Positions 5,771 to 44,508 are shown, numbered from the stretch's first letter. The stretch is DNA of 64,000 bases from an uncultured bacterium (GCA_964413425.1 CAYPST010000001.1:25942-89941); one strand, 5' to 3'. Translations and numbers: made by a program. The notes: generated by a model from the letters alone, not told the origin.

Positions 5771-6328
5771 TTATTCCTTCACGAGTTGGGCAACCCGGGC
5801 AAGGTGTTCGGCCCTCTCCAGGCGGAACAGGGCTTCTTCCAGACTGCCTCCTATGGATAGAGCGCCGTGACGGGCCAGAATCCCAACCACGGATCCTTTC
5901 AGACTCTCTGCCACCGTTTGCGCAAACTGCTCGGTGCCGGGCTCTTCCGCAGAAATCACTGCCAGCTCTCCCACTGTTTCAGCGGTTTCGAACAGCAGAC
6001 CGGCATCCGGCGATTCGCCTCGAACCCCCCAGGCAGTCAGATAGACGGGGTGAGCGTGCACCACCGCCTGAACATCGGGATGGCTCTGATAGATAGCCGT
6101 ATGCATCCGCCACTCCGATGAGGCCCGGCGGGACACGCCTTCTCCGCTGAGATCGACCCGGACCAGATCCCGGGGCTTGAGCTGTTCTTTCCGCACCCCG
6201 GTCGGTGTGATGAGCATCGTCTGCTCATCCACGCGAACGCTGCAATTCCCGTCGCTGGCAGGCATCATACCCAGGCCGCTCAGTCTCCGACAGGTTTCAA
6301 CCAGTTGATATTCTTGTTCTCGCGCCAT
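5771..6328 (-). CDS. class II aldolase/adducin-family protein
   Basis: 185 aa; class II aldolase fold signatures (HTAIY...VVHAHP metal-binding histidines). Confidence 0.65.
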   Translation of the reverse strand: MAREQEYQLVETCRRLSGLGMMPASDGNCSVRVDEQTMLITPTGVRKEQLKPRDLVRVDLSGEGVSRRASSEWRMHTAIYQSHPDVQAVVHAHPVYLTAWGVRGESPDAGLLFETAETVGELAVISAEEPGTEQFAQTVAESLKGSVVGILARHGALSIGGSLEEALFRLERAEHLARVAQLVKE

Positions 6329-28334: not shown

Positions 28335-30149
28335 TCAGTTCCAGAACTGCCACCGTACCCCAAGAAAGAAGACGGGAAAATGCGCGCGCTGATCCAGGGC
28401 ATATCGTAACTGGTAAGCCAGGATGTTGTAGAATGATGTGGAAAGAGTGAAGGGGCCGACCTCTCCGATGAGGTACAAATGGATACAGGCACTGGCGGCC
28501 GGCGCGGCAAGGCCCGGATAATACGTTATACTCTGAATCGCCGGGCTCCAGCCTGAGGGCTGCCGTGAAAAATACATTCCATTCTCCACATAGAGATGCA
28601 GCAGCAGATTGTTCTGAAAGAGATACCGCTGGAGGTGCAGCCAGCTGGTCACTGATTGCCTGCTCCACAATTCCGGCACCACCTGGGTCATCTGGGGATA
28701 ACTGATGTATTGCGATCCCAGGGAAAGCCAGGGAAAGGGGTCGATTCCAACCCGGGAATGCAGCCCGATGAGTCGTCCGGCACTCTGGCGTGCCATCAGT
28801 GAGGTGCCTGCGTCGCCGGCGGAAGATGCATGTATCAGGGTATACCAATCCTGAAAACGTATATGTTCAGCAATGAATTGGAGAGAGCTCCAGTCGGTTA
28901 CCTGGAATTCCACTCCCGCCTGCAACCGGTCCAGCCGGGTCAGAGCAGGCCTGCCATTCCTTTCCAGAAGAGGGTTCTCTCCATAGCTCCATTGCCGGGG
29001 CGGCGCGGAGACTTCCCGGCGGTACCTCCCGGTGACCGTTAAAATATCCCACCATGAATAGGAAATCCGGAACTCTGGTAACAGGAGGAGATCCCATCGG
29101 GAGACTCTGTTGAGGCCTATCTGCGTTGCCCCGGCTTCCAGGTTTACATTTGATCCCTGGTAGTAGGCACGAAATCGGAGGTGATGCCAGTGCTCGTCAG
29201 TCCTGGGAGTGGTCTCCGACTGGTGCTGGAAGATATTGTATCGATAGAATAATTCGGACAGCAGCAAGCCCCCCAGGGAGGCACGCGCACCAATCCAGCC
29301 GCCCCGCTGTACCTCCATTAATTGGGTTGTGCCGGCGGTCCGGTTCAGCCAGAGCCGGTGAGAACCCAGGTTCAAACCACCATACAGGGTGCCGAGGTGA
29401 TGAGTGGTTCGCCATTCCAGCTGGTTATAATACCAGCTGCTGAATTCATCTCCGATCTGTTGCATATTCGGTAAAGCGGTGGTCCAGTTCAGCTGATCTC
29501 TGGTATAAAAGGTATTATAGAAAAATATAGTCGAATCACTCACCTGATGATGCACTGCAGCATAATATCTCTCGTTCTCCAACCCTTCCAATGCGTAAGG
29601 TCCGACATATCCCTCACCTTCTCTGGCCAGATGCAGATGAGTCTGTTCCGTGATATCGGCAGCCAGGCTGATGGAGAGATCATTCAGAGCGTAATCGCCT
29701 TTTTTATAGGCCACATTTACCAGGGGCTCTTCTCCCTTCTCCAGAATATGCGTTCGGAGAGGATATTGGAGTTGACCATCCTCCCGGAACCGAAACCCGA
29801 TGATGGCGTGCTCGGGAAAATATCGGGAAGGGATGGTTGGACGCAGCCTGGTGCGAATCCGATGGTTTTGAATGTATATGACATTCCCGTATTGCGGACC
29901 GGTGACCCCCTGCCAGAAGCCGGTGTTTCCGGTCTCTTCGCGCGGAAAAAAACCGGGAGGATGCATAATCATCAATTCATGCAGCCGCGAACGTATGGCA
30001 ATCGGTACGGTCTCTGTATCGAGAATGATTTGCGTGCTGTCCGGCTCCCGGATATGCAGAGAATCTACACTTTGTGCTCTTATCCGGATCGGAGCTAATG
30101 CCAGAATGGCAAAAAGAATTGTGGCAACGCGTCTGTTTGAAGAACTCAT
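28335..30149 (-). CDS. outer-membrane beta-barrel protein (hypothetical porin-like)
   Basis: 604 aa; cleavable signal peptide; alternating amphipathic beta-strand pattern; C-terminal aromatic residues (...RWQFWN) as in beta-barrel OMPs. Confidence 0.5.
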   Translation of the reverse strand: MSSSNRRVATILFAILALAPIRIRAQSVDSLHIREPDSTQIILDTETVPIAIRSRLHELMIMHPPGFFPREETGNTGFWQGVTGPQYGNVIYIQNHRIRTRLRPTIPSRYFPEHAIIGFRFREDGQLQYPLRTHILEKGEEPLVNVAYKKGDYALNDLSISLAADITEQTHLHLAREGEGYVGPYALEGLENERYYAAVHHQVSDSTIFFYNTFYTRDQLNWTTALPNMQQIGDEFSSWYYNQLEWRTTHHLGTLYGGLNLGSHRLWLNRTAGTTQLMEVQRGGWIGARASLGGLLLSELFYRYNIFQHQSETTPRTDEHWHHLRFRAYYQGSNVNLEAGATQIGLNRVSRWDLLLLPEFRISYSWWDILTVTGRYRREVSAPPRQWSYGENPLLERNGRPALTRLDRLQAGVEFQVTDWSSLQFIAEHIRFQDWYTLIHASSAGDAGTSLMARQSAGRLIGLHSRVGIDPFPWLSLGSQYISYPQMTQVVPELWSRQSVTSWLHLQRYLFQNNLLLHLYVENGMYFSRQPSGWSPAIQSITYYPGLAAPAASACIHLYLIGEVGPFTLSTSFYNILAYQLRYALDQRAHFPVFFLGVRWQFWN

Positions 30150-30447: not shown

Positions 30448-30999
30448 CTATTTGATAATCTCCGTAATGCCTAACTGCTTATGGATGGTCCGTAAAATCT
30501 GTGGGACAAGAATGGCGAATATGATGCCATTACTGACCACATGGACTCCCGAAAGTCCCAGACCGGCCAGCACAGTGCCCCACATCTGGACTCCGGAGAA
30601 ACCTGCGGCCAGGGGAAAACTGATGGTTGTGAGCAGATCATAGACCACAGTCAAGAGCGCCCCCAGGAGTCCCAGCGCGAGATAACCGCCTCCGGTGGCA
30701 AGGAAGAATATTTCGCCTTTCCGGGTCAGACCGCCTGCCAGTCCCACCAGCCCGATAGAGATCACCTGCGCAAGCAATAAAGGAGGAAAGAGAAATCCGG
30801 ATCCGACCGGATTCATTCCCGAATAAATGACTTCCGTCAGCGCGCCAATCAGTGCCCCCATACCCGGGCCCAGAAGCCACCCGCTGATGAAGACGGTGGC
30901 GGTGATCATCTCCAGATTCGGCAGCGCGATCAGGGCAAATCCCAGAGCGACGGCCAGAGCGATAAATAATCCGCTGTAGGCGATCCGGCGTGTACTCAC
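30448..30999 (-). CDS. small polytopic membrane protein, ECF-transporter S-component-like
   Basis: 183 aa; 5-6 predicted TM helices, glycine-rich; 4-nt overlap with the upstream yhaM-like gene; substrate unknown. Confidence 0.4.
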   Translation of the reverse strand: MSTRRIAYSGLFIALAVALGFALIALPNLEMITATVFISGWLLGPGMGALIGALTEVIYSGMNPVGSGFLFPPLLLAQVISIGLVGLAGGLTRKGEIFFLATGGGYLALGLLGALLTVVYDLLTTISFPLAAGFSGVQMWGTVLAGLGLSGVHVVSNGIIFAILVPQILRTIHKQLGITEIIK

Positions 31000-31967
31000 T
31001 CTTCGGACTCCTGCCTCCCTTTGAAGAGCGGGTACGGAAAGCGATAGGTCGGCTGTGTCCAGGTGCCCGGCGCGGAATCGTTGCGGAGAGTGGTAAGCAA
31101 CTGTTGATAGGTGGTGTCGAATCGATCCAGCATAGCAACAGCCAGCGCTTCCAGATTGGCCGGGCGCCTGGCAGCACCTGATTCGAGCGTTTCCTGATGA
31201 GCCAGGATAATGTGTTCCAGCTGTAACAGAAGATCATCCGGGAAGTCCGGAAAATGCTCTGTCACCGTTTCCCGGACAATATCTCGCCCCAGAACCACGT
31301 GGCCGATAAAATGGCCCTCATCGGTATACTGGCGGTCAATATCCGATTTGATTTCCAGTAACTTGCCGATATCGTGGAGCAGCAACCCGGCAAGAAAGAG
31401 GTCCCGGTTCAACTCGTAATAATGATCCGCAACCAGGATTCCCAGCTCGCCAAGCGACCAGGTATGTTCCAGAAATCCTCCCCGGTAGATATGATGCTGT
31501 GAGACCGAGCCGGGATGGGTTTTTATTTCCTGCTCAAAGTCATGATAAATTTGCTTCACCAGCTTGTGAAGATGGATCTCTTCCAGGCTGCCGATGATTT
31601 TCTCTACCGCCTCCCACATATAAGCGATATCATATTCCGTGGAAGGCACAATATCCCGATAGGTTAACCCGAACCGCTCAACCTGGTCTTCTTTGGCCGG
31701 TGTAATCTGGTCCACCACCAGCTGCAATTTGCCATTATATTCTTCCACCTCGCCGGTCGCCGCCACCACCATGCCCTGCTGCAGCCATTCCAGGGCCTCC
31801 GCCGGGACGTTCCACCATTTTGCCTGCACGGAACCCTCCCGGTCGCTCAGCACACAGTCCAGAAAAGGATCCCCTTTCCGGGTGAGCCGGCGATTCATCT
31901 GGGTCAGCTGATAGAATCCCTTGACGTTTTGTCCGACTTTGAATTTCTGAATGGGCGTTAACTTCAT
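30996..31967 (-). CDS. OB-fold + HD-domain 3'-5' exoribonuclease (YhaM-like)
   Basis: 323 aa; N-terminal OB-fold nucleic-acid-binding domain; HD motif (LLHDIGK). Confidence 0.7.
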   Translation of the reverse strand: MKLTPIQKFKVGQNVKGFYQLTQMNRRLTRKGDPFLDCVLSDREGSVQAKWWNVPAEALEWLQQGMVVAATGEVEEYNGKLQLVVDQITPAKEDQVERFGLTYRDIVPSTEYDIAYMWEAVEKIIGSLEEIHLHKLVKQIYHDFEQEIKTHPGSVSQHHIYRGGFLEHTWSLGELGILVADHYYELNRDLFLAGLLLHDIGKLLEIKSDIDRQYTDEGHFIGHVVLGRDIVRETVTEHFPDFPDDLLLQLEHIILAHQETLESGAARRPANLEALAVAMLDRFDTTYQQLLTTLRNDSAPGTWTQPTYRFPYPLFKGRQESEE

Positions 31968-32104: not shown

Positions 32105-33505
32105 TCACATCAACAGCTGAATCTTCTCCACGTACCCATCCGCATCGAATTTCCGCTTCAACCCATTCGCATTCATATACCGGACCTTCCCGTAGACGGG
32201 ACGTTCTTTCCATCCCTGGTCATGATTACCGAAGCACCAGGCAACCCCGGCATAGCCGTTGGGATCCCGTCCGTCGAGTTCGTACTTGTTATTTAAATAG
32301 AGTGCAATATCATACGCTCTTCCCGGATGCTCCGTCCACTCCAGGATCTTCTTCCCCCAGTACATCCGCATGTATCCGTGCATTTTCCCGGTAAGAACCA
32401 TTTCCATCTGAGCGGCATTCCAGTAAGGATCATGGGTCTCTGCTCTCTCAAATTCTCCCGGGGAGTACATATATTCACGCGTATCTTCTGCATGTTCGGA
32501 CAGAGTTACCCCAGCCCACTGTGGCAGGCAGGAAAATTCATCGTAATTTTCGGTGTAATAACAAAAATTCACGCTCAGTTCCCGCCGCACAATCAACTCT
32601 TCCAGGTAAGGGTCTTTGCCCGGACTTTCAGTCTCCAGGATCTTCCCGGCGATATAGAGCGGAGAGATTTGGCCGAAACGGAGATAGGGACTCATGCGTG
32701 AGAGGGCGTCTTCCACCGGATTATTACGGTCGATATCATATCGATCCAGTTTCTTCGCGATGAAAGTATTCAACAAATCACGTGCACGGGAAGTCCCGCC
32801 CCGGAAGTGCTCAGTCGGTGTCACCGATCGATCAACGTCAAGTGCGTGCAGCACAGCAGAGATATCCGAAATGTCTGCAGACCGGATACTAGGGCCGACG
32901 GAGGGATTCCTCACCTCTTCCCGCGTTACCGGGTGGAGAAATTTATCCAGATGGCGGTGTATTTTTGGCCGGATGGTTCTGGCAGCATACTCGCGTTTCA
33001 AAGTAACTTCCTCCACCGGGACCACCACATCAGATTCCACCTGGAATAAGGGACAATCGATGTTCCCGGCAACCTCCCGGCGCCACTGCCTCTGGATGCG
33101 CGTGTACCCGCGATCGGTAACCATAAGTACTGCCCGCCGGGAAAATTCTATGGCAACCCGTTCCGGAGACTGATAACGAATGGCCATCTGAATTCCGCGC
33201 TCTCGTAATTTCTGCTGTGTTTCCTGAAGCCCTTCCAGCATGAACTTGTAATGCCGGGCATTGGCCTCAGGATACTCACCGGTAATGCCGAACACCACCA
33301 GCGGCGGCACATTCAAACGGTTCGCATGCTGAACGGCAAACTCCAGAGCGTGATTGTACTCCTCTCGCTGAGAAGCCTGCATCCAATAGATCACATACTT
33401 CCCGGACTGCCCTGTGTGATCAGTCAGTCTTTGAACCCGCTCGGTCGGAATCATCGCCTGCGCCTCTAATGAACTTTTCATTCTCCCGTCCTCCTCCCGT
33501 GTCAA
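32105..33505 (-). CDS. phr: deoxyribodipyrimidine photolyase (class II CPD photolyase-like)
   Basis: 466 aa; photolyase N-terminal alpha/beta domain and FAD-binding C-terminal domain (WN...M...HGYMRMYWGK). Confidence 0.8.
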   Translation of the reverse strand: MTREEDGRMKSSLEAQAMIPTERVQRLTDHTGQSGKYVIYWMQASQREEYNHALEFAVQHANRLNVPPLVVFGITGEYPEANARHYKFMLEGLQETQQKLRERGIQMAIRYQSPERVAIEFSRRAVLMVTDRGYTRIQRQWRREVAGNIDCPLFQVESDVVVPVEEVTLKREYAARTIRPKIHRHLDKFLHPVTREEVRNPSVGPSIRSADISDISAVLHALDVDRSVTPTEHFRGGTSRARDLLNTFIAKKLDRYDIDRNNPVEDALSRMSPYLRFGQISPLYIAGKILETESPGKDPYLEELIVRRELSVNFCYYTENYDEFSCLPQWAGVTLSEHAEDTREYMYSPGEFERAETHDPYWNAAQMEMVLTGKMHGYMRMYWGKKILEWTEHPGRAYDIALYLNNKYELDGRDPNGYAGVAWCFGNHDQGWKERPVYGKVRYMNANGLKRKFDADGYVEKIQLLM

Positions 33506-33976
33506 TCATCGGTCCTTTCCGAACCGGTGTCTGAGGATTTCCGCCCGGAAGTGAAAAATGTCGTTCAGGCGTTTCCGGACGACGAACTTATGCACCAATT
33601 CTCCTATTATGCTCAGCGGCATGGCATAATGGACAATATCTTCCATTCTGGTGCCAGAAGCGGTTTCCCGGAACAGATGCTGATGATGCCAGAACCGATA
33701 CGGTCCGAAGCGCTGTTCATCTACGAACATCTTCCCGGGATGAAAATGAGTGATTTCGGTAATCCATCGGAGGGAGACGCCGGGAAATACGCCAATTCGG
33801 TACGTGATTATCAGACCTGCATACATCTGATCAGGTACCTCCGAAGTGATGCGAAACCGCAGCCAGTCAGGTGTGATGTCAGCGAGATTCCCGGGATCAG
33901 AGAAGAAATTCCATGCCTCCGCTAACTCAACCGGCAGCAGCTGCGTGCGATGAATGCGATGAAGGTTCACGTTCAA
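33506..33976 (-). CDS. SRPBCC (START/polyketide-cyclase-like) family protein
   Basis: 156 aa; abuts the photolyase gene with no intergenic gap. Confidence 0.6.
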   Translation of the reverse strand: MNVNLHRIHRTQLLPVELAEAWNFFSDPGNLADITPDWLRFRITSEVPDQMYAGLIITYRIGVFPGVSLRWITEITHFHPGKMFVDEQRFGPYRFWHHQHLFRETASGTRMEDIVHYAMPLSIIGELVHKFVVRKRLNDIFHFRAEILRHRFGKDR

Positions 33977-34037
33977 TCAGTTCCAACCTTTCCTGCCTCG
34001 AATGATACTTCAGTTATCAGAAGCTACAGTTATAATT

Positions 34038-34733
34038 TCACTTTAAAAGCACCAACCCGAAATAGAGTATCTGGGCAAAAAATATATGCTTTGCTAACAT
34101 AGGCGCCTGATTCGGTACGGCATTGAACCGCAGACCGAGAACCGTGAAGAACAGACTTATTACGAACCAGGCGGTGTAATTCCGGAGCGGAATGCCCCCG
34201 CCAAACCAATGCCAGTACCCCAGTGTGACAGCCACTTGCTCCAGAAGGAAATCAAACAGGACCATCGACACTGCAATCAAAAGTCCCCGGAGCAGCCATT
34301 TCTGTTGTGTATTTTTCACAAGCCAGTCAACAACGCCGTTTGACGCCAGAAGCATCCCCAGCCATGCGAAACCGATTGCCAGGGGTACTCCCCGAATCAC
34401 CGGCCGGAGCACCTGGCCGTATTGATACTTTCCAAAAATTACGCCCGTTTGCGCCCCAATTAGTTCTACGAAAAAACTTGCGCCCAGCACAAAGAAGCTC
34501 CAGGCAATGAATACCAGACGACTGTGAGTCGACAGAATCCGATAATACTCACCTGCTAACCATATCCCGAGAACGATAATAACCGGCCCAGCCAGAATTC
34601 TCATGGTATCCTGCAATATTCCCAGGAGATGCCAGAACCCGCCGGCCAGGAGTATAAAGTAGAGCGCTCCGAGCTTGATCCGGGATATATGCTCCCGGTT
34701 GAATCCTCTCCGGATAAACCCGAATCTCCTCAT
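34038..34733 (-). CDS. membrane carotenoid biosynthesis protein, CruF-like (putative carotenoid 1',2'-hydratase)
   Basis: Polytopic membrane protein of about 230 aa from the internal Met at 34733 (the longer ORF would overlap the upstream gene by 86 nt); position in the carotenoid operon next to GT2 and acyltransferase genes mirrors cruF in Salinibacter/Rhodothermus clusters; assignment by context. Confidence 0.5.
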   Translation of the reverse strand: MRRFGFIRRGFNREHISRIKLGALYFILLAGGFWHLLGILQDTMRILAGPVIIVLGIWLAGEYYRILSTHSRLVFIAWSFFVLGASFFVELIGAQTGVIFGKYQYGQVLRPVIRGVPLAIGFAWLGMLLASNGVVDWLVKNTQQKWLLRGLLIAVSMVLFDFLLEQVAVTLGYWHWFGGGIPLRNYTAWFVISLFFTVLGLRFNAVPNQAPMLAKHIFFAQILYFGLVLLK

Positions 34734-34767
34734 ATCTTCCGTATGTTCCTGTCTTGTTAGCCAGCCA

Positions 34768-35889
34768 TTAAGGCGAGTGAAGAACAATGTCCCGCCCCTT
34801 CCAGTGTATAACCCCTTTCTTGACTTGCCGGTAGGAATCCACACTGATGACAAGCGTTAACAGGACCGCTACCGGATGCAGCAGAACACTTAGCAAAATG
34901 GGATGCCGAAACCGCAGAGCCAGCCCGCCCCTGATAAGCACATTCACAGCGATTGCTGCCCCTGAAAGCAACGCAAATGGCCGGAACCATATCACCGCGT
35001 AAGGGGCGATGGCCGTCAGCAACATCAGCGGCACAGCGACCCAGAAGAGCACGCTGTTATAGCCGGTCAATCCGAACATGATTTTCGTCATACCCTCCCG
35101 GGTCTCCTGCATTGTGCGGTACATTCTGGCAAATACCACCCCGGTCCCGGCTGCCGTCATCATCCGGATCCCGGCGGCTTTGGCCTTCCGGGCCAGCTCA
35201 ACATCTTCAACTATTTCTACGCGAACAGCCTGATGTCCTCCCAGCGATTGATACATGTCCCGCGTACATGCCAGCCATTGTCCGTTGGCTGCCGATAAAG
35301 ACGGAGCCGAAAACCGCAAGACAGCCCAGAGGGGCAGAGTACTGTAGAGAATCACGTCTATCATCGGTACCAGGAGTTTTTCCGGAACCGTCCGGGTTAT
35401 CTGCTGCGGAAATGCAGAAAATAATCCAAGATTACGCTGCTGCATCCATGCGATCGTCCTGGTCACTGCATCCGGAGCACACCAGTTATCCGCATCCGTG
35501 AAAATGAGCACCTCACCGCCCGCCACCTGACTCAATTGATGACAGGCCCAATTTTTTCCGGTCCAGCCAGGGGGTACCGGCTCCCCCCGTATCAGGGTGA
35601 TATTCGAATGGCGGGCAGCATACTCTTCTACCAACTCGCCGGTTTTATCTTCCGACCGGTCATCCAGCACCAGAATTTCCAGGGGTTCATAATTCTGCCG
35701 CACCAATCCCTCCAGGCACCGACTGATATTGCTGGCCTCATTCCGGGCCGGGACCAGCAACGAAACCTTTACCTGCTCAAGGACTGCTCCGCTCTGGCTC
35801 AACTGCGGGCCCCAAATAATATTCATGTACGAAATGAGCAGCAGGATGAAAAGCAGGGCGAAAATAACTGAAGCAAAGTACAACATCAC
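34768..35889 (-). CDS. family 2 glycosyltransferase (CruC-like carotenoid glycosyltransferase)
   Basis: 373 aa; N-terminal TM helix; GT-A fold motifs (LVPARNE, DD, TDADN DxD motif); C-terminal TM helices. Confidence 0.7.
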   Translation of the reverse strand: MMLYFASVIFALLFILLLISYMNIIWGPQLSQSGAVLEQVKVSLLVPARNEASNISRCLEGLVRQNYEPLEILVLDDRSEDKTGELVEEYAARHSNITLIRGEPVPPGWTGKNWACHQLSQVAGGEVLIFTDADNWCAPDAVTRTIAWMQQRNLGLFSAFPQQITRTVPEKLLVPMIDVILYSTLPLWAVLRFSAPSLSAANGQWLACTRDMYQSLGGHQAVRVEIVEDVELARKAKAAGIRMMTAAGTGVVFARMYRTMQETREGMTKIMFGLTGYNSVLFWVAVPLMLLTAIAPYAVIWFRPFALLSGAAIAVNVLIRGGLALRFRHPILLSVLLHPVAVLLTLVISVDSYRQVKKGVIHWKGRDIVLHSP

Positions 35890-35896
35890 CGAAATC

Positions 35897-36616
35897 CTAA
35901 GTAAACCACTCTTTGAATTGCCGGTATCTGGTATGGACTGAGGGCGTACCCTTCAGGAGAGGTGTGGCTGGTGGTTCCGTTTTCATATGATCAACCAGTT
36001 CGTCCAGCAACTGGGTCTCCTCCTTCTCTAACCATGGCATCCCCGGAAATTCCTGGCCAGTGATTACGTGATTTTCACCAAAGAGGACAAACACCTCCGG
36101 ACGCTGTTCCGCACACAACTCCGCTTTTATCGCCACGGGGATGATACTGACGCTGCCCTGATAACGAGTGAGAACCCACTCCAGTCCGCTTCGAAAATCC
36201 AGCGGACGCTGAAACCAGGACACCAGATCTCCCTGGGGAAAAATGCAGACCAGCGAGGCGGGTTTACTGTGCTCGTCCAGCAACTCCAGAGTATATTGCA
36301 GCGATTCCATCATCCCCTTCCGTGATTCCAGTGGAATGGAGTAAGCCCCCACCTTCGCAAAGAACCGGAACGACCGAAGCTGGTCCTCGGTCACCATGAG
36401 ATAGAACGGCCGCTTGAAGACCTTCACATTGAGCAGATAGATTAAGAATCCGTCCCACCAGGTGCTGTGATTAGGTGCAAGCACTACGGGAATCGCCGGG
36501 GCAGTCGAAGGAATATCACCATAGATATAAATCCCTGCAAAGGACTTCCTGAGCAGCCGAAAAATGTAGGAACGGAAGATCTGCTCGAACCATCCTGAAT
36601 GAGCGGCTTTAATCAT
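35897..36616 (-). CDS. lysophospholipid-acyltransferase-family protein (CruD-like carotenoid glycoside acyltransferase)
   Basis: 239 aa; H(X4)D motif NHSTWWD; located between the GT2 gene and crtB. Confidence 0.65.
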   Translation of the reverse strand: MIKAAHSGWFEQIFRSYIFRLLRKSFAGIYIYGDIPSTAPAIPVVLAPNHSTWWDGFLIYLLNVKVFKRPFYLMVTEDQLRSFRFFAKVGAYSIPLESRKGMMESLQYTLELLDEHSKPASLVCIFPQGDLVSWFQRPLDFRSGLEWVLTRYQGSVSIIPVAIKAELCAEQRPEVFVLFGENHVITGQEFPGMPWLEKEETQLLDELVDHMKTEPPATPLLKGTPSVHTRYRQFKEWFT

Positions 36617-36760
36617 GATCCGGTGCCGTGCCCAGTGTTAAAAACTTGAATTTCAGTACCGGGCCATGGATACACGAGTCCACACTCAAATTTTCCGAAT
36701 TCATACTGGCAGCCATTCCCTCCTCGTTACATCCTGCGATTTCTACCCTGTCAGGAACCA

Positions 36761-37675
36761 TTATGTATTCACCGACACCATTTGCTCTTGCCTGAACGAC
36801 AGCCTGGTTCGGAGGATTTCTCCGAGCAGGATTTGCAGTTTCTCGGTCTTTGGTACATATACACGTTCCAGGAACGGATTATAGCCGCGCGCTTCAATCT
36901 TTGCGAGAATGCCCCGGTAGATCTTACTGGCAGCGTAAATGGCAAATTGAGCATTCTTCTCCAATAACTGGATGCCTGGCTGGGCTTCATCGTAATATCG
37001 GTGGGCTCTGCTCACCTGAAAGGTCATGAGGTCCTGCATTGCGTCAGACATAGTACCTGCCTGAACATGATGATCTCTCAGATTAAACCTTCCCAGTTCA
37101 TCCTGGGGCAAATATATTCTGCCTCGTCCGACATCCTCTTTCACATCCCGCAGAATATTCGTCAACTGCATGGCAATCCCCAATTTTTCTGCGTATGCAA
37201 AGGCCTCCTCACTCTGGTATCCCAGAACATAGGTCATCATAATCCCCACAACGCCCGCCACCCGATAGGCAAACAGATACAGATCATCAAAGGTCTCGTA
37301 GCGTGAGAGCCGGAGGTCCATTTCAATGCCCTGTAACAGCTCCTGCGGATATTGTTCCGGAATCTCATATTCCCTGGCAACAATAATGAAAGGCTGCAGT
37401 ACGGGATGTTCTGATTCTCCGGTGCGGTAGGCGACACTGAGTTCCTCGGAGAGATAGGAGATCTCCCGGCTCAGCTCTTCAACAGAGCGCTGCCGGGGGT
37501 TATCTATCAAATTATCTGCATACCGGCAGAGGCCATACAGTGCATAGGTGGCCCACTGCTTCTGCTCCGGAAGCATCCGGGCGGAAAGATAGAAGCTTTT
37601 CGAGTGATGCGCCGTCAGCAGCCGGGCATGTTCGAATGCCACTTTGTTTTCGCCATTCATCCAGTGGTATTTCAT
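36761..37675 (-). CDS. crtB: phytoene synthase
   Basis: 304 aa; squalene/phytoene synthase Asp-rich motifs (YCRYADNLID, DLRLSRY region). Confidence 0.85.
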   Translation of the reverse strand: MKYHWMNGENKVAFEHARLLTAHHSKSFYLSARMLPEQKQWATYALYGLCRYADNLIDNPRQRSVEELSREISYLSEELSVAYRTGESEHPVLQPFIIVAREYEIPEQYPQELLQGIEMDLRLSRYETFDDLYLFAYRVAGVVGIMMTYVLGYQSEEAFAYAEKLGIAMQLTNILRDVKEDVGRGRIYLPQDELGRFNLRDHHVQAGTMSDAMQDLMTFQVSRAHRYYDEAQPGIQLLEKNAQFAIYAASKIYRGILAKIEARGYNPFLERVYVPKTEKLQILLGEILRTRLSFRQEQMVSVNT

Positions 37676-37679
37676 ACAA

Positions 37680-39185
37680 TCAGGCCCTTTTTCTTTGATA
37701 TTGTTGCATATTAAAATCTGAGAGCACCACCTGCTCGGTGGCTTCCGCAGTCAGGAGCACGCCAGGCACTCCGGCTCCGGGGTGAGTACTCGCTCCTACA
37801 AAATACAGCCTGTCGATGTCTTCACTCCGGTTATGCGGACGGAAGATGGCGGTCTGGGTGAGTTTCGGCTCCACGCCCCACGCACTTCCCAGGTACGAAT
37901 TGCGCTGCGTCCGGAAATCCTCCGGAGTAAACAATTCCATAACGCCGATATTCTCCGTCAATCCCTGTAATCCGAAATCCTCCTCCAGATAACGCAGGAT
38001 TCTTCCGGCATATCGCTCCCCCTGCTGCTCCCAGTCGATACCGCTTCGAGCGTTTGCCACGGGAACCAGGATCGTCATGCTCTCGGCGTCAGGCGGGGCC
38101 ATCCCGGGATCCGTGCGGCTTGGAACATGCAGATAGATGGAAAAATCCTCCGGAAGAATCTTCTGATCGAATATATCCCGGACCAGTTCCTTGTATCGAG
38201 GGGACAGCACAATTGTGTGATGCCGGAGCTGCGGAAATTGCTTTTTCACACCTACATACATCAAAAATGCACTCATGGAATAATCCAGGTTTTCCACCCG
38301 GCGGTTGGTCCACTTATGTCTATGTACCGGAGGTATCAACTCCCGATAGGTATGAGCAAAATCCGCATTGGATATAACGGCGTCGGCGTCGAGGAACCGT
38401 CCATCCGTCTGTACTCCCACAGCCATACCATCGTTGACGACAATTTCCCGGGCCGGAGTATTGGTGAGTACGCGTCCTCCCAGTGATTCGAAGACCGACT
38501 CCAGCGCCCCGACCAGCGAATACATGCCGCCTTTGGAGTACCAGACGCCGCCGATCTTCTCCAGATAGGGAATCATCAGGTAAACCGCCGGGGCGCGAAA
38601 CGGATTCCCGCCGATGAACAGGGGATGAAAGGAAAACGCAAACTGATGCCGGGGGTCTGCAAAATGGCGCCTTACAAAAGTATGAGTCGACAACAGCGCC
38701 TTCAGTTTCAGAGCCCGGGGAAGGAACTGCAGCATGGTCCCCCAATCCATAAACGGCTGGGATCCGAGTCCGTCGGTGATGACCGCATGATACAACTCAC
38801 GTGATTCCCGGACGAAATCCTCGTAATGCTCCGCATCCGACGGGTTAAATTGCTTCATCTGCGCAATCATCCGGTCGGTATCATCCGTATAATCCAGGTA
38901 TGTACGGTCATGATAATATATCCGATAGAACGGATTCAATTTTGTCAGCTTTAGGTGATCCTCCATCCGGGTTCCACCGGCGTGAAACACCTTCTGAATG
39001 ATATCGGGCGCCGTGATGAGTGACGGCCCCATATCGAAGGTGTATCCCTCCTTTTTCAGCTGGAAAGCATGGCCGCCCACAGCAGCATTCTTCTCCAGGA
39101 GAGTCACTTCAAATCCCAACCCCTGTAATCGAATGGCAATAGCCAGACCACCCAATCCGGCGCCAATGACCACGATCTTATTCAT
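37680..39185 (-). CDS. crtI: phytoene desaturase
   Basis: 501 aa; N-terminal FAD-binding VIGAGLGGLA; CrtI-family C-terminal signature. Confidence 0.85.
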   Translation of the reverse strand: MNKIVVIGAGLGGLAIAIRLQGLGFEVTLLEKNAAVGGHAFQLKKEGYTFDMGPSLITAPDIIQKVFHAGGTRMEDHLKLTKLNPFYRIYYHDRTYLDYTDDTDRMIAQMKQFNPSDAEHYEDFVRESRELYHAVITDGLGSQPFMDWGTMLQFLPRALKLKALLSTHTFVRRHFADPRHQFAFSFHPLFIGGNPFRAPAVYLMIPYLEKIGGVWYSKGGMYSLVGALESVFESLGGRVLTNTPAREIVVNDGMAVGVQTDGRFLDADAVISNADFAHTYRELIPPVHRHKWTNRRVENLDYSMSAFLMYVGVKKQFPQLRHHTIVLSPRYKELVRDIFDQKILPEDFSIYLHVPSRTDPGMAPPDAESMTILVPVANARSGIDWEQQGERYAGRILRYLEEDFGLQGLTENIGVMELFTPEDFRTQRNSYLGSAWGVEPKLTQTAIFRPHNRSEDIDRLYFVGASTHPGAGVPGVLLTAEATEQVVLSDFNMQQYQRKRA

Positions 39186-40776
39186 GTGTCCTTCCTTGCT
39201 TCTTTTGATTAATAATGCTGTCCAACCCGGCTTGCCAGTATTCCGTTATTTCCCGGAGTGACTGGCTATGATTCTGAGGCATGTCCTTCTCAACTGAGAA
39301 CCCCTCCTGTTCGGCAATCAAAGTGGCCGCCATCCGTCCGGAGAGGAGCACCAGCGGTATCCCGCCGCCGGGATGGACCGAGCCACTGGCAAAGTACAGC
39401 CCCCGAATATCCCGGCTGCGATTGGGATGACGTTGAAATGCCGTTGTCCGGCTGTTGGAAGACACCCCATAAATGCTCCCCTTATTGCTGCCAAACAGGC
39501 GAAAGAAGTCCACCGGAGTCAGTACTTCTTCCAGCTCGATATCCGAGGCGATATCAATGCCGTGTGCTCTGAGTTTTCGGAATACCTGCTGCCGGGTTTC
39601 ACCGACAAACCGCGACCAGTTCTGGCTGCCGAACATATACGGCATATTCACCAGCACAAACCAGTTCTCCCGGCCTGCAGGGGCATCCCCGGGGTCGGTC
39701 TTTGAGGAGATTGCGATATATACCGTGGGATCATCAGGAGCCCGCAATTCCTGAAACAACTGTCGAAACTCCTGCCGGTAATCATTGGAAAAGAAAATAT
39801 TATGGTGCTTCAGATCCGGCGTCACACCTCGTTTGCCCCAGAAGAACACTAACCCGGAGAGCGATGGTTCAAGCGCAGTCACCTGCCGATGCAGGTGGGG
39901 CAGGTTCTCCAGCAGTTGATTGTAAGCGGTCACAACATCGACATTACAGATGACGTAATCCGCCCGGTAGGATTCTCCCCCGACTCGAACCCCTGCCACC
40001 TGCTCCCCGTTATGCTGTATTTTTTCCACCCGGGTCGAATGGTGAATTCGTACTCCCCTGGCACGCGCCATTTGCTGCAGTATCTCTACCAGACGATACA
40101 TTCCTCCGGAAATGTAAAAGCCGCCCAGGCCGAATTCCACATAAGGGATAATGTTCAGCGTTGCCGGCGCCTGATAGGGATCGGAGCCGTTATATGTGGC
40201 ATACCTGTCGAATAATTGAATCAACTTCGGATCCTGAAAATGGGATGCGACAGCCTTATGGACCGTTCGCAGTGGATCGATTCTATGCAGAAGGGTGAGC
40301 GATTTCAAGTACATGGGAAAACGAGACAAACTTATCTCATGAATCGGATTCCAGAGAAAGAGATCTGCCGTGTGCTCGAAAATCCGCTTACTATAACGGA
40401 GGAATCGACGGTACGAGCGCACATCATCCGGCGCAACACGACGGATTTCCGCTTCCATTGAAACCGGGTCCATACTGGCGTCGAACACAGTTCCGTCAGG
40501 AAACTGATATCTGCAGAGCGGATCCAGTGGAATATATTCTAAAGAATCCGACGGTTCCGCCTCGATGAACCGGAATAACTCATCCACCACAAACGGCATG
40601 GTCAGCAGGGAGGGGCCGGTATCGAATCGATAGCCGTCCAGCCGGAGTTCATTCATCTTTCCGCCCAGCGACCGGTTCTGCTCAAACAGTGTGACGTCAA
40701 ACCCCATTTTCGCCAGCCGGAGGGCACTGCTCAAACCCGCCAGTCCACCGCCGACGACAGTAACTTTCTTAGGCAT
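39178..40776 (-). CDS. CrtI-family carotenoid oxidoreductase (CrtO-type ketolase or CrtD-type 3,4-desaturase)
   Basis: About 530 aa from Met at 40776; FAD motif VVGGGLAGLS; second CrtI paralogue in the operon, as in salinixanthin-type clusters; exact reaction not assignable from sequence. Confidence 0.7.
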   Translation of the reverse strand: MPKKVTVVGGGLAGLSSALRLAKMGFDVTLFEQNRSLGGKMNELRLDGYRFDTGPSLLTMPFVVDELFRFIEAEPSDSLEYIPLDPLCRYQFPDGTVFDASMDPVSMEAEIRRVAPDDVRSYRRFLRYSKRIFEHTADLFLWNPIHEISLSRFPMYLKSLTLLHRIDPLRTVHKAVASHFQDPKLIQLFDRYATYNGSDPYQAPATLNIIPYVEFGLGGFYISGGMYRLVEILQQMARARGVRIHHSTRVEKIQHNGEQVAGVRVGGESYRADYVICNVDVVTAYNQLLENLPHLHRQVTALEPSLSGLVFFWGKRGVTPDLKHHNIFFSNDYRQEFRQLFQELRAPDDPTVYIAISSKTDPGDAPAGRENWFVLVNMPYMFGSQNWSRFVGETRQQVFRKLRAHGIDIASDIELEEVLTPVDFFRLFGSNKGSIYGVSSNSRTTAFQRHPNRSRDIRGLYFASGSVHPGGGIPLVLLSGRMAATLIAEQEGFSVEKDMPQNHSQSLREITEYWQAGLDSIINQKKQGRTHE

Positions 40777-41446
40777 GGCGGACCCTTCGGAGTTTTTCAT
40801 ACAAAATGAGTGTGAACAGAATCAGTGCGAATCCATAGAAGAAATCCTCCAGTGGGATAGTAAAAATGTATATACCCAGCTGGAAGGATGTATCATACAA
40901 CACCAGAGGACGGGCGGTGAGATACCCGTTAAACAGCAAAATAAACACAGCCAGAACGCCCAGATATCGATAGGTTCTGCTTTCCAGGAGCACGCCGGTT
41001 TTCAACACCAGATCCAGCCCTATCACCAGAGCCAGGGCCAGCAAGACCAATCCCGGATATTCATATCCAAGCAGTAGAAACAGTGTTCCGATAATCAGGC
41101 TGCAGGCCGCGAAAACTCCAAGCGTTCCGGTACGAATTACAACAGCTGCTTCACGATGAGCGAAAAACACTTCCCAGACAAACAGGCAGGCGAACGGGAC
41201 CGAAACAAAAAACAATATTTCCTCCACAGGGAGTCCTGCTACCCGAAATCCTGTGGTGTAATCCTGATTAAACCACCAGTGCCGCCCGACAACCAGGGCA
41301 TCCCAGAGAACAAAAGGGACCAGCACGGCTGCGATAGCCGTAAAAACCATCGGCCACCTTGAGGCGAACCGGACTTTGTTTTCAAAACTAAAGCCAATCG
41401 GACCGGCCATCACCAGCACATTAAACAGGAGATATTCGTATTTCAT
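40769..41446 (-). CDS. lycopene cyclase domain protein (fused CrtYcd type)
   Basis: 225 aa; seven hydrophobic segments; duplicated heterodimeric-lycopene-cyclase-like halves. Confidence 0.7.
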   Translation of the reverse strand: MKYEYLLFNVLVMAGPIGFSFENKVRFASRWPMVFTAIAAVLVPFVLWDALVVGRHWWFNQDYTTGFRVAGLPVEEILFFVSVPFACLFVWEVFFAHREAAVVIRTGTLGVFAACSLIIGTLFLLLGYEYPGLVLLALALVIGLDLVLKTGVLLESRTYRYLGVLAVFILLFNGYLTARPLVLYDTSFQLGIYIFTIPLEDFFYGFALILFTLILYEKLRRVRHA

Positions 41447-42021
41447 TCGCTGTGTATCTCAGCTTTTATTGTATTAAGAGTCACCTCTTCTCCGGCAGTC
41501 AGGGGAACTTCCTCTTCCATGAACCGGACGACATCCAGGATCAGTTCGGAGTCGTACTGCCGATAATTCTCCTCCAGTAACCCTATGATGTGCCGGAATG
41601 TCTTAAGAGCATCCTCTTTGCAGCCGAAGAAGAACGGCAGATGATGACAGGTCATTCCATAGATGAAAAGTGCTTCCAGATCATCGGGAGCTTCCGTTAA
41701 TCCCTGCTCCATCATCTGTAAACCATCCTGCACATATCGCAATTTCTTCTGTGGCATAAAGGCGTGCTTGCCTTTCAGGGTATAGGCCGCCCCTGTATAA
41801 GTCAGTGCCAGTCCGTTATAGGCCGGCGCATGGCTGGAGAGCTCCTGGAATATTTCCTGAGTCGTATCCACCAGGCTTTCCTGCCGCACGGCCTCATAGA
41901 ACGCCTTCCGGCCCTTATCCAATAACACCTCCATATCGGCAGCAGACGCCTGGTATCCCGCGGGCCCTCCGGTGAATATAGACAGGCCAACCAGCAGTAT
42001 GAGATATTTCCGTTTCTTCAA
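41443..42021 (-). CDS. secreted hypothetical protein, first gene of the carotenoid operon
   Basis: 192 aa; Sec signal peptide (MKKRKYLILLVGLSIFTGGPAGYQASA); helical; ATGA-type overlap with crtYcd start. Confidence 0.55.
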   Translation of the reverse strand: MKKRKYLILLVGLSIFTGGPAGYQASAADMEVLLDKGRKAFYEAVRQESLVDTTQEIFQELSSHAPAYNGLALTYTGAAYTLKGKHAFMPQKKLRYVQDGLQMMEQGLTEAPDDLEALFIYGMTCHHLPFFFGCKEDALKTFRHIIGLLEENYRQYDSELILDVVRFMEEEVPLTAGEEVTLNTIKAEIHSE

Positions 42022-42196
42022 TGGTCCCCTCTTCTCCGTTTGCTCATATGGTTATTTCTGAATATATGAGCGTTATGAACGGTAAATGTTACAGATTTAT
42101 TTTAACTGAGTCAAATATAAAAGTTCAATACGATTATATTATTTGCTTCTCCGGTACGCAGACAGTAATTTTCTTCTGAATATCAGGGAGGGGAAT
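42022..42196. promoter_or_regulatory. divergent promoter/operator region between the carotenoid operon and the litR/carH-like regulator
   Basis: 175-bp AT-rich intergenic region between two divergent start codons; direct repeat TTCTGAATAT at 42056-42065 and 42173-42182; TGTTACA/TGTCAAA-like elements. Confidence 0.5.
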
Positions 42197-43066
42197 ATGC
42201 GTGCGACCATACAATATTTTTCTACCAAAGATGTGGCCCGTCTCCTGGGTGTTCACGTCTCCACTATCAAGCGGTGGACGCAAGAGGGGAAGCTGGACTG
42301 CATTAAAACCGCCGGTGGCCACCGGAAATTTTCCTTTCAGCATATCACCAAATTTCTGCAGGATCATCGTGAGCAGATTGACCGGGCCAATCTCCTCTCA
42401 ATCGAATCCGGAGAGGACCTCCAGCTCAGTTATGAAATAATGAATAACAATACGGACTTCCTCGGAGAGTATATTTTTGCACAGGCATTACAGCGAAACA
42501 GGAAGCAGGTCAATAAGGTGTTGAACGGACTATCGCTGGCCCAGTACCCACTCTACCGGGTTTATGACGAGATTCTGACTCCGGTGCTCCACGAAATTGG
42601 CGATCAATGGGAGGCGAATGAACTCACCGTGATTGAAGAGCACATTGCAGCCCAAACCATCCGGGATGCGATTATCCGGCTGCAGGGTATTCTCCAATTA
42701 CCGGAGACCACCCGCGGCAATGTTCTGTGTCTCAGCCTCACTTCCGAACTGCATGATATTGCCCTCAAGATGGCAGACCATATTCTGGAACAGCGGGGCT
42801 TCACCGTCCTGTTCAGCGGACAAATGACCCCGCTCTATGGTATCGAGACTGTTTTGCAGAAGTACGAGGTCAGCCGTCTCTATATTTCGAGCACGTACGT
42901 TTCCGATGTCAACCGCGCGCAGTTTGAACTGAATTATCTCTACGATCACTGCGCTGATTATGGTACGGATATCATTGTGGGAGGGAGCGGTTTTGATACA
43001 CTGGAATACGATCACCCGGCGGTAAAGGCGCGGCTGCATACGTTCAGGGAAATACAGGAATATTAA
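42197..43066 (+). CDS. MerR-family transcriptional regulator with C-terminal cobalamin-binding domain (CarH/LitR-type light-responsive regulator)
   Basis: N-terminal MerR HTH (YFSTKDVARLLGVHVSTIKRW); C-terminal B12-binding-like module (ELHDIALKM with candidate axial His, ...SxV..., ...GGSG); GGGAGGGG RBS upstream of the Met at 42197 (the longer ORF starts at 42143). Confidence 0.7.
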   Translation: MRATIQYFSTKDVARLLGVHVSTIKRWTQEGKLDCIKTAGGHRKFSFQHITKFLQDHREQIDRANLLSIESGEDLQLSYEIMNNNTDFLGEYIFAQALQRNRKQVNKVLNGLSLAQYPLYRVYDEILTPVLHEIGDQWEANELTVIEEHIAAQTIRDAIIRLQGILQLPETTRGNVLCLSLTSELHDIALKMADHILEQRGFTVLFSGQMTPLYGIETVLQKYEVSRLYISSTYVSDVNRAQFELNYLYDHCADYGTDIIVGGSGFDTLEYDHPAVKARLHTFREIQEY

Positions 43067-43093: not shown

Positions 43094-43774
43094 TCAGAGC
43101 GAAGCCAGCAGGACGGCAATAATTCCGGTCAGGAAAATCCCGTCGAATGTGCCGGCGCCGCCGATGGACGCCACCGGGGCACCGGAGTGGGCAATCTTCT
43201 TCAGATTCAACAGATCCGCGCCTATCAGCGTCCCGAAGGTTCCGGAAATATAGGCCACCACCGGCTCATATGTATTGGTGAGGATGACCGCTGCCAGGGC
43301 GGCAATAATCGGCGGGATGAACAGCGGAACACCGATGCCTACCCCCTGTATCTGCCGGGCCAGTCTGTTAACAGCCACCGTCAATATGGCGGTGGCAACC
43401 AGAGCGGGAAGCAGAATGGCGGGATTTGACAGGAGCAGATAGAGTGACAGCAGCACCGGGATGACAGCGCCACCGACATTCACCGCAATCAAAGTCTCAT
43501 TGCTCCGGGCCATTCCCGGAATCCGGAACCGCCAGCCCATAAACCGCACCTGCGAACCGGTGGAGACAACCACATCGCTGGAAATGCGCTTCACCGGAAC
43601 ATTCACCGCACTCCCCAGCAGTGAGAGAAACAGCAGAAGAAATACGGCCTCCATGGGAATACCGACGGCTTCGAACGCGTAACCAATCACCCCAATCTGC
43701 ACGATAAAGAACAGGAATCCCAGTATCAGAATGTACAGGAGAAAGAAAATAAACAGAAACGGAAGAAAATACAT
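43094..43774 (-). CDS. DUF1614-like polytopic membrane protein
   Basis: 226 aa; about 6 TM helices; family assignment from memory. Confidence 0.5.
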   Translation of the reverse strand: MYFLPFLFIFFLLYILILGFLFFIVQIGVIGYAFEAVGIPMEAVFLLLFLSLLGSAVNVPVKRISSDVVVSTGSQVRFMGWRFRIPGMARSNETLIAVNVGGAVIPVLLSLYLLLSNPAILLPALVATAILTVAVNRLARQIQGVGIGVPLFIPPIIAALAAVILTNTYEPVVAYISGTFGTLIGADLLNLKKIAHSGAPVASIGGAGTFDGIFLTGIIAVLLASL

Positions 43775-44037: not shown

Positions 44038-44508
44038 TTATCGCTGGTCTTTCGTGGCGTCATTCTGCGAAGCAGTCAGATCTTCCACCCGCTGTTTTAA
44101 TGCTTCATTCATCTGTTGAAAGCCAACCCGGGTGTTGGTATCCAGGCTCCGCCACAACAGCGGGACCAGGAGTCCGGTGAAATTTTCTTCCTGGGTAAAT
44201 AACACTTTCTTCTCCGACAGGGGCAGAATTTGAAAGATATGCTCTCCGTTGAATAACCGGGGGAGCCCCATTCGTCCTATCCAGCGAAATTCTCTGGGAG
44301 GATTGGCCGTCAGTACGGTCGGTCTGAACCACATCCCCTTGCTGCCGGGTGGTTTGATCAACACCTCCAGGCGACTCCCGCTGACCGGGGTTCCGATAAT
44401 CTCCGGAATGAAGGGGTTCCATTCGGCATGAGCCCCGAAATCCATTAAGGTTTGCCACACCTGCTCCGCGGATGCCCGAATCTCAATCTCACTGCGTAAG
44501 GTCCGCAT
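44038..44508 (-). CDS. SRPBCC family protein
   Basis: 156 aa; polyketide-cyclase/START-like fold indicators (WNPFIPE, FRWIG). Confidence 0.6.
   Translation of the reverse strand: MRTLRSEIEIRASAEQVWQTLMDFGAHAEWNPFIPEIIGTPVSGSRLEVLIKPPGSKGMWFRPTVLTANPPREFRWIGRMGLPRLFNGEHIFQILPLSEKKVLFTQEENFTGLLVPLLWRSLDTNTRVGFQQMNEALKQRVEDLTASQNDATKDQR

Follow-up and report, generated by a model that had tools for sequence, protein, structure and literature searches.

A stretch of 64,000 nucleotides from an uncultured bacterium (GCA_964413425.1, CAYPST010000001.1:25942-89941; this whole stretch is called the window below) carries, at positions 32105-43066, ten close-packed genes, among them those of a carotenoid pathway and a photolyase, together with a divergent gene for a B12-binding regulator. 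We propose that the ten genes form a photoprotection operon, which is probably repressed in the dark by an adenosylcobalamin (AdoCbl) photoreceptor from a CtMerR-like branch of the CarH/LitR superfamily. It is well established that CarH/LitR regulators accompany light-controlled crt clusters and that LitR regulons include photolyase genes. What is new here is the CtMerR-like assignment, a predicted operator of 9-bp repeats with a two-site geometry, the occurrence of the regulon across uncultured phyla of the Fibrobacterota-Chlorobiota-Bacteroidota (FCB) group, and the lineage-specific joining of two further genes, for an SRPBCC protein and a class II photolyase, to the pigment operon.

A ten-gene block divergent from a B12-binding regulator

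An earlier interpretation of the same DNA, made from the sequence alone (the sequence-only reading), had described ten contiguous minus-strand genes with overlaps or small gaps, facing away from a MerR-superfamily regulator with a B12-binding domain. Mapping of open reading frames (ORFs) combined with Pfam and NCBIfam scans bore out this layout and supported all of the gene identities, and the regulator was found to have an intact Wx9EH motif and lower-ligand His motif. In order from the promoter, the block at 32105-42021 and the regulator comprise:

41443-42021, minus strand: unk192, 192 aa, first gene of the block; signal peptide, no Pfam or other family match
40769-41446, minus strand: crtYcd, fused heterodimer-type lycopene cyclase (PF18916, two stretches, 92.9 bits; TIGR03462, 100.4 bits)
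39178-40800 (likely start 40776), minus strand: second CrtI paralogue, CrtD-like 3',4'-desaturase (NF042421 (CrtD), 438 bits)
37680-39185, minus strand: crtI, phytoene desaturase (TIGR02734, 550.7 bits, exceeding the cut-off of 238)
36761-37675, minus strand: crtB, phytoene synthase (PF00494, 252 bits)
35897-36616, minus strand: PlsC-type acyltransferase, CruD-like (PF01553, 38.6 bits)
34768-35889, minus strand: GT2 glycosyltransferase, CruC/CruG-like (PF00535, 82.7 bits)
34038-34853 (likely start 34733), minus strand: CruF-like carotenoid 1',2'-hydratase (PF04240, 88.8 bits)
33506-33976, minus strand: SRPBCC, Coq10/RatA-type lipid-binding protein (PF03364, 30.7 bits)
32105-33505, minus strand: phr, class II cyclobutane pyrimidine dimer (CPD) photolyase, last gene of the block (TIGR00591, 566.2 bits, cut-off 550.05)
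42197-43066, plus strand: B12-binding regulator, 289 aa, divergent from the block; HTH_17/MerR winged helix-turn-helix (HTH), four-helix bundle and Rossmann B12 domain

Every junction in the block but one is an overlap or a gap of 0-61 bp, the exception being the 144 bp between crtB and the acyltransferase gene. Because almost all genes of the window lie on the minus strand (about 55 in a greedy ORF call, the plus strand holding the regulator and four short, doubtful ORFs), co-orientation is no evidence in itself; what speaks for one unit is how closely the genes are spaced, together with the divergent regulator and conserved synteny. A scan of species-representative genomes gave a comparison set of 80 loci, whose neighbouring genes were identified by tblastn. 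At about 37 of the 80 the regulator is divergent from (unk192)-crtYcd-crtD-crtI-crtB-acyltransferase-GT2-cruF, the order seen in the window, with unk192 present in 14. Three closer relatives from metagenomes, L081-L083, lie outside these species-level loci and were compared separately. This arrangement would be consistent with co-transcription of the block through phr and with its control by light. Rfam and tRNA scans of the window gave no match, neither to a cobalamin riboswitch nor to any other model.

Relatives of the regulator occur in metagenome-assembled genomes of Calditrichia, KSB1, Zhuqueibacterota and Marinimicrobia, with a best match among GTDB species representatives of 52%, and the best named relatives of the SerS encoded at 6328-7596 are from Candidatus Marinimicrobia/Fidelibacterota (73-74% identity). 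Because of these SerS and regulator relatives, we assign the window to an uncultured FCB-group bacterium and not to Rhodothermota. The affinity with Salinibacter and Rhodothermus that the sequence-only reading implied was not upheld, since the housekeeping protein SerS points to Marinimicrobia/Fidelibacterota.

The regulator resembles CtMerR more closely than CarH

The regulator ORF is listed from a TTG at 42143, and the ATG at 42197, behind GGGAGGGG, gives the family-wide length of 289 aa and is the most likely start. The best HTH match was PF12728 (HTH_17, 41.8 bits), and PF13411 (38.3 bits) and PF00376 (35.7 bits) both scored over cut-off, as predicted for an N-terminal MerR-type winged HTH. 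Among cobalamin-binding models, B12-binding_2 (PF02607) matched with 42.6 bits and PF02310 with only 16.4 bits. Motif conservation was assessed in an alignment of 24 family members, in which G135xxW138, W138-x9-E148-H149, E184-x-H186, G208xxxP212, S231/T233 and G262G263 are invariant; the second of these is the Wx9EH motif of the four-helix bundle. The cobalamin motif reads E184-L-H186-D-I-A189, 41 residues, S231-S-T233, 28 residues, G262G263. This agrees with D/ExHx2G/P-x41-SxT/V-x22-27-GG, except that the last spacer is one residue over range and the G/P position is A in the window and A or P across the family. Comparison with the CarH/LitR motifs (PMC9304148), which the sequence-only reading had called for, found the lower-ligand His, SxT and GG all present. 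The SignatureFinder elements GxxW, EH and GxxxP are invariant, and GxxH reads S183xxH186 in the window and is variable across the family; in CtMerR the Gly of GxxH makes a main-chain contact only (PMC11796333).

The closest characterised protein is CtMerR (WP_157850694; PDB 8JBS/8JBT; Yu et al., FEBS J 2024, PMC11796333). The regulator aligned to 8JBS with E 7e-43 in a profile search, over residues 4-268, and with E 1.4e-32 as a single sequence. The two proteins share their full-length architecture, their HTH type (GGHR[KR]F, KRW), Wx9EH, the lower-ligand His, GxxxP and a non-His residue after the Trp; they differ in that identity is 48% in the DNA-binding domain (DBD) and 34% in the cobalamin-binding domain (CBD), and in that the regulator has SxxH for GxxH. 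CtMerR binds AdoCbl as a dark tetramer and is a monomer in the light, and an AdoCbl-dependent dark oligomer that falls apart in the light has been demonstrated for both CtMerR (CBD) and TtCarH (PMC11796333). The DNA site of CtMerR is not known, its authors expecting one unlike that of CarH, and no DNA target or regulon has been reported for it (PMC11796333), whereas for the regulator of the window an operator and a target operon can be predicted.

Relative to CtMerR, the match to TtCarH (5C8D) was weaker, with E 1.6e-11, and the regulator scored 60.8 bits on the NCBIfam CarH equivalog NF052513, far under the cut-off of 400. Its recognition helix is VSTIKRWTQEGKL, in which KRW is invariant in the family and the ERRY of RxWERRY is missing. 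Since Glu follows W138, no bis-His light state of the TtCarH kind would be expected; at this position CtMerR carries Arg and is nevertheless light-responsive. The HTH (residues 10-54) also matched BldC of Streptomyces (6AMA/6AMK), modestly so, with E 1.4e-4 to 6AMA and 41.5 bits against a cut-off of 77 on the BldC model NF033787. Like BldC, the regulator has a MerR-like winged HTH without a coiled coil; unlike BldC, which is a stand-alone domain of 68 residues that recognises AATTxxxxC, this domain is fused to a B12 sensor and is paired here with a predicted CGCTCA repeat. Thus, by sequence comparison, the regulator is placed in a CtMerR-like subfamily with a putative BldC/excisionase-type HTH, and not with canonical CarH. 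The CarH/LitR-type photoreceptor of the sequence-only reading is retained as far as Wx9EH and full-length homology to CtMerR are concerned, and is not matched in RxWERRY, in the His after Trp, in the CarH score or in TnnACA repeats.

The same features bear on what the protein senses. It might respond to cobalamin availability or redox state, or be B12-independent like CarA, and tune carotenoid and TonB-receptor genes to B12 status. The low PF02310 score, the loosely kept GxxH and the lack of the His that TtCarH uses for its light-state bis-His adduct would suit such a sensor, as would the prominence of TonB-dependent receptors, which head the other operator-linked genes of the family in frequency. 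Wx9EH, however, is intact and invariant, and this is the motif that separates light-sensing CarH from CarA (PMC9304148); CtMerR, which likewise lacks a His at this place, is photoresponsive all the same, turning monomeric in the light; and the target genes (carotenoids, photolyase, SRPBCC/SDR/DUF1295, where SDR is short-chain dehydrogenase/reductase) are photoprotective. We consider a B12-status sensor highly improbable, and favour a photoreceptor.

Predicted operators at the crt and regulator promoters

Alignment of the intergenic regions gave an operator consensus, AAAAAAT-CGCTCA-TAA-CGCTCA-TTT, with a 9-bp period. Sites with at most one mismatch numbered 117 in the 80 loci, compared with 1-9 in shuffled sequence. 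Of these, 65 fall in the 400 bp that precede the regulator gene, at a 50-fold higher density and in 45 of the 80 loci, whatever the neighbouring genes. The layout in related loci is fixed. Facing away from the regulator is a CTTGACA-17-TATATT promoter, with a minus-strand copy 4-13 nt downstream of its TATATT; the regulator has its own TTGACA promoter, and a plus-strand copy stops 6 nt short of that hexamer (short of TTGAC in 20 of 39 loci). The paired copies are 56-67 bp apart. A generic promoter and terminator scan performed at chance level overall and was used only where comparative data agreed. The corresponding elements of the window are:

42114-42109 (TTGACT), 17-nt spacer, 42091-42086 (TAACAT), minus strand: predicted crt promoter, from a consensus scan
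42067-42081, minus strand: predicted operator O1, CGTTCATAACGCTCA, two 9-bp-spaced direct repeats with one mismatch to consensus
42122-42136, plus strand: predicted operator O2, AGTTCAATACGATTA, a variant tandem repeat in canonical position with four mismatches to consensus
42143-42171, plus strand: predicted regulator promoter TTGCTT-17-TAATTT, read from the sequence

The layout of the crt promoter recurs in related loci as CTTGACA-17-TATATT-operator, and the regulator promoter matches the TTGACA-17-TATATT promoters of those loci in position. O1 begins 4 nt downstream of the crt -10 element TAACAT, over the predicted transcription start, and is the sole site with at most two mismatches in the 64 kb; the sequence TGAGCGTT[AT]TGAACG is identical in the close relatives L081 and L083, the flanks having diverged. 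O2 starts 75 nt upstream of the regulator ATG and lies upstream of both -35 boxes, at 6 nt from that of the regulator and 7 nt from that of crt. Its sequence GTTCAnnnCGATTAT is conserved in L081 and L083. Since both sites are conserved there while their flanks have diverged, we read O2 as a maintained variant and not as decay.

The conserved element is thus a tandem 9-bp direct repeat, the period found in BldC targets, where BldC protomers bind 9-bp direct repeats head-to-tail (PMC5859096). By comparison, class I CarH/LitR proteins (Thermus thermophilus, Myxococcus xanthus, Bacillus megaterium) have the same AdoCbl-type CBD with Wx9EH, a divergent regulator gene adjoining carotenoid genes, a direct-repeat operator overlapping promoter elements and the logic proposed here of dark repression and light derepression; their operator, however, consists of 3-4 contiguous 11-bp repeats, nnnnTnnACAn (PMC9304148), against two separate pairs of 9-bp CGCTCA repeats in the window. 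No CarH-type TnnACA was found on either strand of 42022-42196. The class II LitR proteins PplR/PmlR of Pseudomonas (PMC9758184) are LitR-family repressors over photolyase and lipid-modifying genes, with operators over the -35 and downstream of the transcription start, which resembles the present arrangement; unlike the window regulator they have no Rossmann B12 domain and need a LOV partner, and their operator is TGTACA-N12-TGTACA. No TGTACA box was seen in the regulator/unk192 intergenic region.

These results suggest that the regulator may bind the CGCTCA repeats. The alternative is that CGCTCA-N3-CGCTCA is bound by another factor encoded elsewhere and that the B12 regulator recognises some other site. 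The operator was assigned by co-occurrence, and 35 of the 80 regulator loci have no site within 400 bp. On the other hand, the sites accompany the regulator gene in different phyla and beside different neighbours (crt, ECF (extracytoplasmic function) sigma, ribA and TonB receptor); in Neomarinimicrobiota loci a site stands ahead of a TonB-receptor-regulator operon; a 9-bp tandem repeat suits a BldC-type DBD; and neither a CarH-type nor a class II LitR-type motif is present. We therefore give a separate factor very little credence and retain the regulator as the candidate ligand of the repeats.

A model for dark repression and light derepression

In the model that we favour, the AdoCbl-loaded regulator would oligomerise in the dark, probably as a tetramer, and its paired BldC/excisionase-type winged-helix domains would bind head-to-tail to the two tandem 9-bp repeats of CGCTCA-N3-CGCTCA. 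Because O1 lies over the crt transcription start and O2 between the back-to-back -35 boxes of crt and regulator, binding would be expected to block the operon and to autoregulate the regulator. Light would cut the Co-C bond, the oligomer would disassemble and the repressor would leave the DNA. Transcription would then proceed through unk192-crtYcd-crtD-crtI-crtB-acyltransferase-GT2-cruF and, in the lineage of the window, on into the SRPBCC and class II photolyase genes. Both repression and the read-through into phr are suggested by homology and geometry.

Several observations weigh against this model. The near-total minus-strand orientation of the window means that the adjacency of the ten genes could be partly incidental; the 144-bp gap between crtB and the acyltransferase gene is not conserved and leaves room for an internal promoter; no clear terminator was seen at the 3' end of the block; and SRPBCC and phr are missing from the cluster in all 80 species-level relatives. 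At the operator, O2 departs from the family consensus at four positions and operator and regulator are linked only through their co-occurrence, and in the protein PF02310 is weak and the GxxH signature reads SxxH. For the transcript itself, the 144-bp gap holds no element conserved among close relatives, and a search for further operators in front of crtB, SRPBCC or phr gave none. Downstream of phr, the folding of the RNA is on a par with that of shuffled sequence (z 0.25), and therefore no terminator was assigned.

More tentatively, the 289-aa proteins of Calditrichota, KSB1, Zhuqueibacterota and Marinimicrobia might together with CtMerR form a distinct class that reads 9-bp CGCTCA repeats through BldC-like domains, whose dark tetramer would bridge repeat pairs 55-67 bp apart and loop out the core promoter, and which would also gate a TonB receptor, coupling light to uptake, possibly of a corrinoid. 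We regard this wider proposal as possible but doubtful.

B12 photoreceptors have been studied in few organisms, and CtMerR is the sole characterised member of its branch; with the predicted operator and regulon, a defined DNA fragment and its half-sites can now be put to direct test. The range of light-regulated pigment synthesis and photorepair would also widen to uncultured FCB-group lineages, including Marinimicrobia-like bacteria, which are usually regarded as heterotrophs of the dark ocean or of sediments. Green-light optogenetic tools could, in addition, make use of a repressor/operator pair orthogonal to CarH.

SRPBCC and photolyase at the end of the proposed operon

The product of phr matched PDB 2XRY over its full length (E 1.2e-113) and 8OET (E 1.3e-114); together with the TIGR00591 score, this assigns it by sequence to the class II CPD photolyases. 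The sequence-only reading had singled out the presence of phr and SRPBCC inside the operon as distinctive, which agrees with their being missing in the 80 species-level relatives and conserved in the window's own clade. In L081 and L082, whose regulators are 70% identical to that of the window, all ten genes are kept, with SRPBCC overlapping phr by 4 bp, and L083 agrees with this arrangement as far as its contig reaches. In L045, L054 and L064 the gene next downstream of the regulator is an orthologue of SRPBCC, and L054 and L064 have the order regulator-SRPBCC-NmrA/epimerase-DUF1295-TonB receptor. Because these orthologues are co-operonic with the regulator, SRPBCC is a recurrent member of the regulator neighbourhood, and in the lineage of the window it appears, together with phr, to have joined the end of the crt operon.

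It could be argued that the light-regulated unit ends at cruF, and that SRPBCC and phr form a separate, possibly constitutive unit that merely abuts it. That phr stands beside the cluster in 0 of the 80 species-level relatives, that a 61-bp gap precedes SRPBCC, that no operator lies upstream of SRPBCC or phr and that nearly all window genes are co-oriented would each be expected in that case. Yet L081/L082 preserve the arrangement down to the 4-bp overlap although their regulators are just 70% identical to that of the window; SRPBCC orthologues occur in the regulator's operon elsewhere; neither a promoter-like nor a terminator-like site, nor a second operator, was found in the 61-bp cruF/SRPBCC gap by the generic scan and the operator scan; and photolyase genes are typical of LitR regulons (PMC9758184). 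A separate unit thus seems unlikely to us, and a single operon running into phr is preferred.

The SRPBCC of the window has no significant relative of solved structure. Its sole match was to the N-terminal region of 3OH8, deposited as a nucleoside-diphosphate sugar epimerase (SulA family), with E 0.34, which is far from significant. SRPBCC is followed by an NmrA/epimerase-type SDR in the regulator operons at L054:10852-13119 (where DUF1295 is present too) and L064:11988-13372. This proximity and the 3OH8 match may reflect a functional SRPBCC-SDR pair.

Downstream of phr, 30448-31967 encodes a YhaM-like 3'-5' exoribonuclease (OB + HD) and an energy-coupling factor transporter S component overlapping by 4 bp, with no evident terminator between phr and these genes. 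The gene that immediately precedes the regulator in L064 (L064:8991-9986) encodes a 2-thiouracil desulfurase/DUF1722 (YbgA-like) protein; in E. coli, ybgA is co-operonic with phr.

Carotenoid enzymes and the predicted pigment

The enzyme set had been likened in the sequence-only reading to the salinixanthin-type pathway, with the second CrtI paralogue left between CrtO and CrtD. This paralogue, about 31% identical to the adjoining CrtI, was classified with hidden Markov models: it scored 438 bits on the CrtD model NF042421, under the cut-off of 500, and 64.5 bits on the CrtO model NF045689, whose cut-off is 1000, so that the CrtD half of the label stands and the CrtO half falls. In the cluster the best CrtO scores were 78 bits for CrtI and 64.5 bits for the paralogue, and the NF045689 scan found no CrtO ketolase; no third CrtI-family gene is present in the 64-kb window. 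CrtB, CrtI and the lycopene cyclase of the acyl-glycoside pathway are all present (PF00494, TIGR02734, PF18916). The CruF hydratase, CruC-type glycosyltransferase and CruD-type acyltransferase are matches at family level only: the CruF-like protein scored 65 bits on NCBIfam CruF, and the GT2 136.6 bits on CruG and 149 bits on HpnB, all under cut-off. The three genes are, however, kept together in about 25 related clusters, and the acyltransferase holds a conserved cluster position in relatives. The salinixanthin-type set is thus confirmed in CrtB, CrtI and cyclase, lacks the CrtO ketolase in the cluster and has a dedicated CrtD-like desaturase in addition. From these enzymes we predict a monocyclic 1'-glycosyloxy-3',4'-didehydro carotenoid acyl ester without a 4-keto group, and, because no ketolase is encoded in the cluster, a non-keto relative of salinixanthin.

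The pathway of Rhodothermus marinus comprises CrtB, CrtI, CruF, CruC, CruD, CrtY and CrtO (PMC7414004). The clusters of R. marinus and Salinibacter ruber (PMC7414004, PMC5822342) share with the window CrtB, CrtI, a lycopene cyclase and, at family level, a CruF-type hydratase, a glycosyltransferase and an acyltransferase, and that of R. marinus contains a MerR-family gene. Unlike them, the window has no CrtO, has a CrtD-like desaturase, has CrtYcd in place of CrtY and has cruF unfused to crtB; it belongs to another phylum, and its genes stand in one predicted divergent operon with a secreted TPR-like protein, SRPBCC and photolyase. A search of the literature on carotenoids in Calditrichota or Marinimicrobia found nothing relevant. 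Neither a rhodopsin, a ketolase nor a second regulator copy was seen among the window genes examined, and a reading of the pigment as a xanthorhodopsin antenna was therefore dropped.

The first gene of the block, unk192, encodes a protein with a Sec signal peptide and a confident predicted model (pLDDT 86.9) of an eight-helix TPR-like fold. One may speculate that it is a periplasmic carrier of a hydrophobic ligand or carotenoid. A profile search gave 1501 representative clusters at E<=1e-3 for its family, which has no Pfam model; the family core has invariant GKHAF...P..K and TC..LPFFF, and the family includes proteins of 540-968 aa with three domain copies.

Other genes near the regulator and the operator

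Among the 80 loci, the commonest other operator-linked genes encode TonB-dependent receptors. These are about 780 aa long and, in the loci scanned for domains, have CarboxypepD_reg and Plug. Such a receptor has CGCTCA-N3-CGCTCA within 350 bp of its start in 16 loci (L004, L009, L017, L018, L022, L026, L042, L045, L048, L055, L058, L064, L065, L068, L074 and L076), an example being L045:11494-13827. The TonB receptor downstream of the regulator at L054:13251-15620 has no site listed ahead of it, and DUF4249 comes next. A corrinoid as the receptor substrate would be a guess.

In three loci an ECF sigma factor replaces crt opposite the regulator, with paired operators (L013:9281-9841, L030:2724-3299 and L035:9245-9820), its identity being Pfam-confirmed for L013 and L030. 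The pairing of regulator and ECF sigma recalls the Streptomyces LitR-LitS and Myxococcus CarQ cascades.

Three large proteins of the window gave no Pfam match (28335-30149, 604 aa; 23062-24771, 569 aa; 15571-17718, 715 aa). A DUF1614 membrane protein at 43094-43774 is convergent with the regulator and is kept downstream of it in L081-L083, and 44038-44508 encodes a second, unrelated SRPBCC protein (PF10604) that is not conserved in L081.

Five genomes have two regulator paralogues, one of them crt-adjacent (L001/L061, L016/L055, L027/L058, L036/L057 and L044/L051). The second paralogue is divergent from a Pfam-confirmed GTP cyclohydrolase II gene at L044:9129-9791, and ORFs of the same size lie at the equivalent position in L055:9147-9803, L058:7273-7929 and L057:2282-2971. 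Further paired operators flank genes for DUF4397 proteins at L044:14165-15481 and L055:12424-13749.

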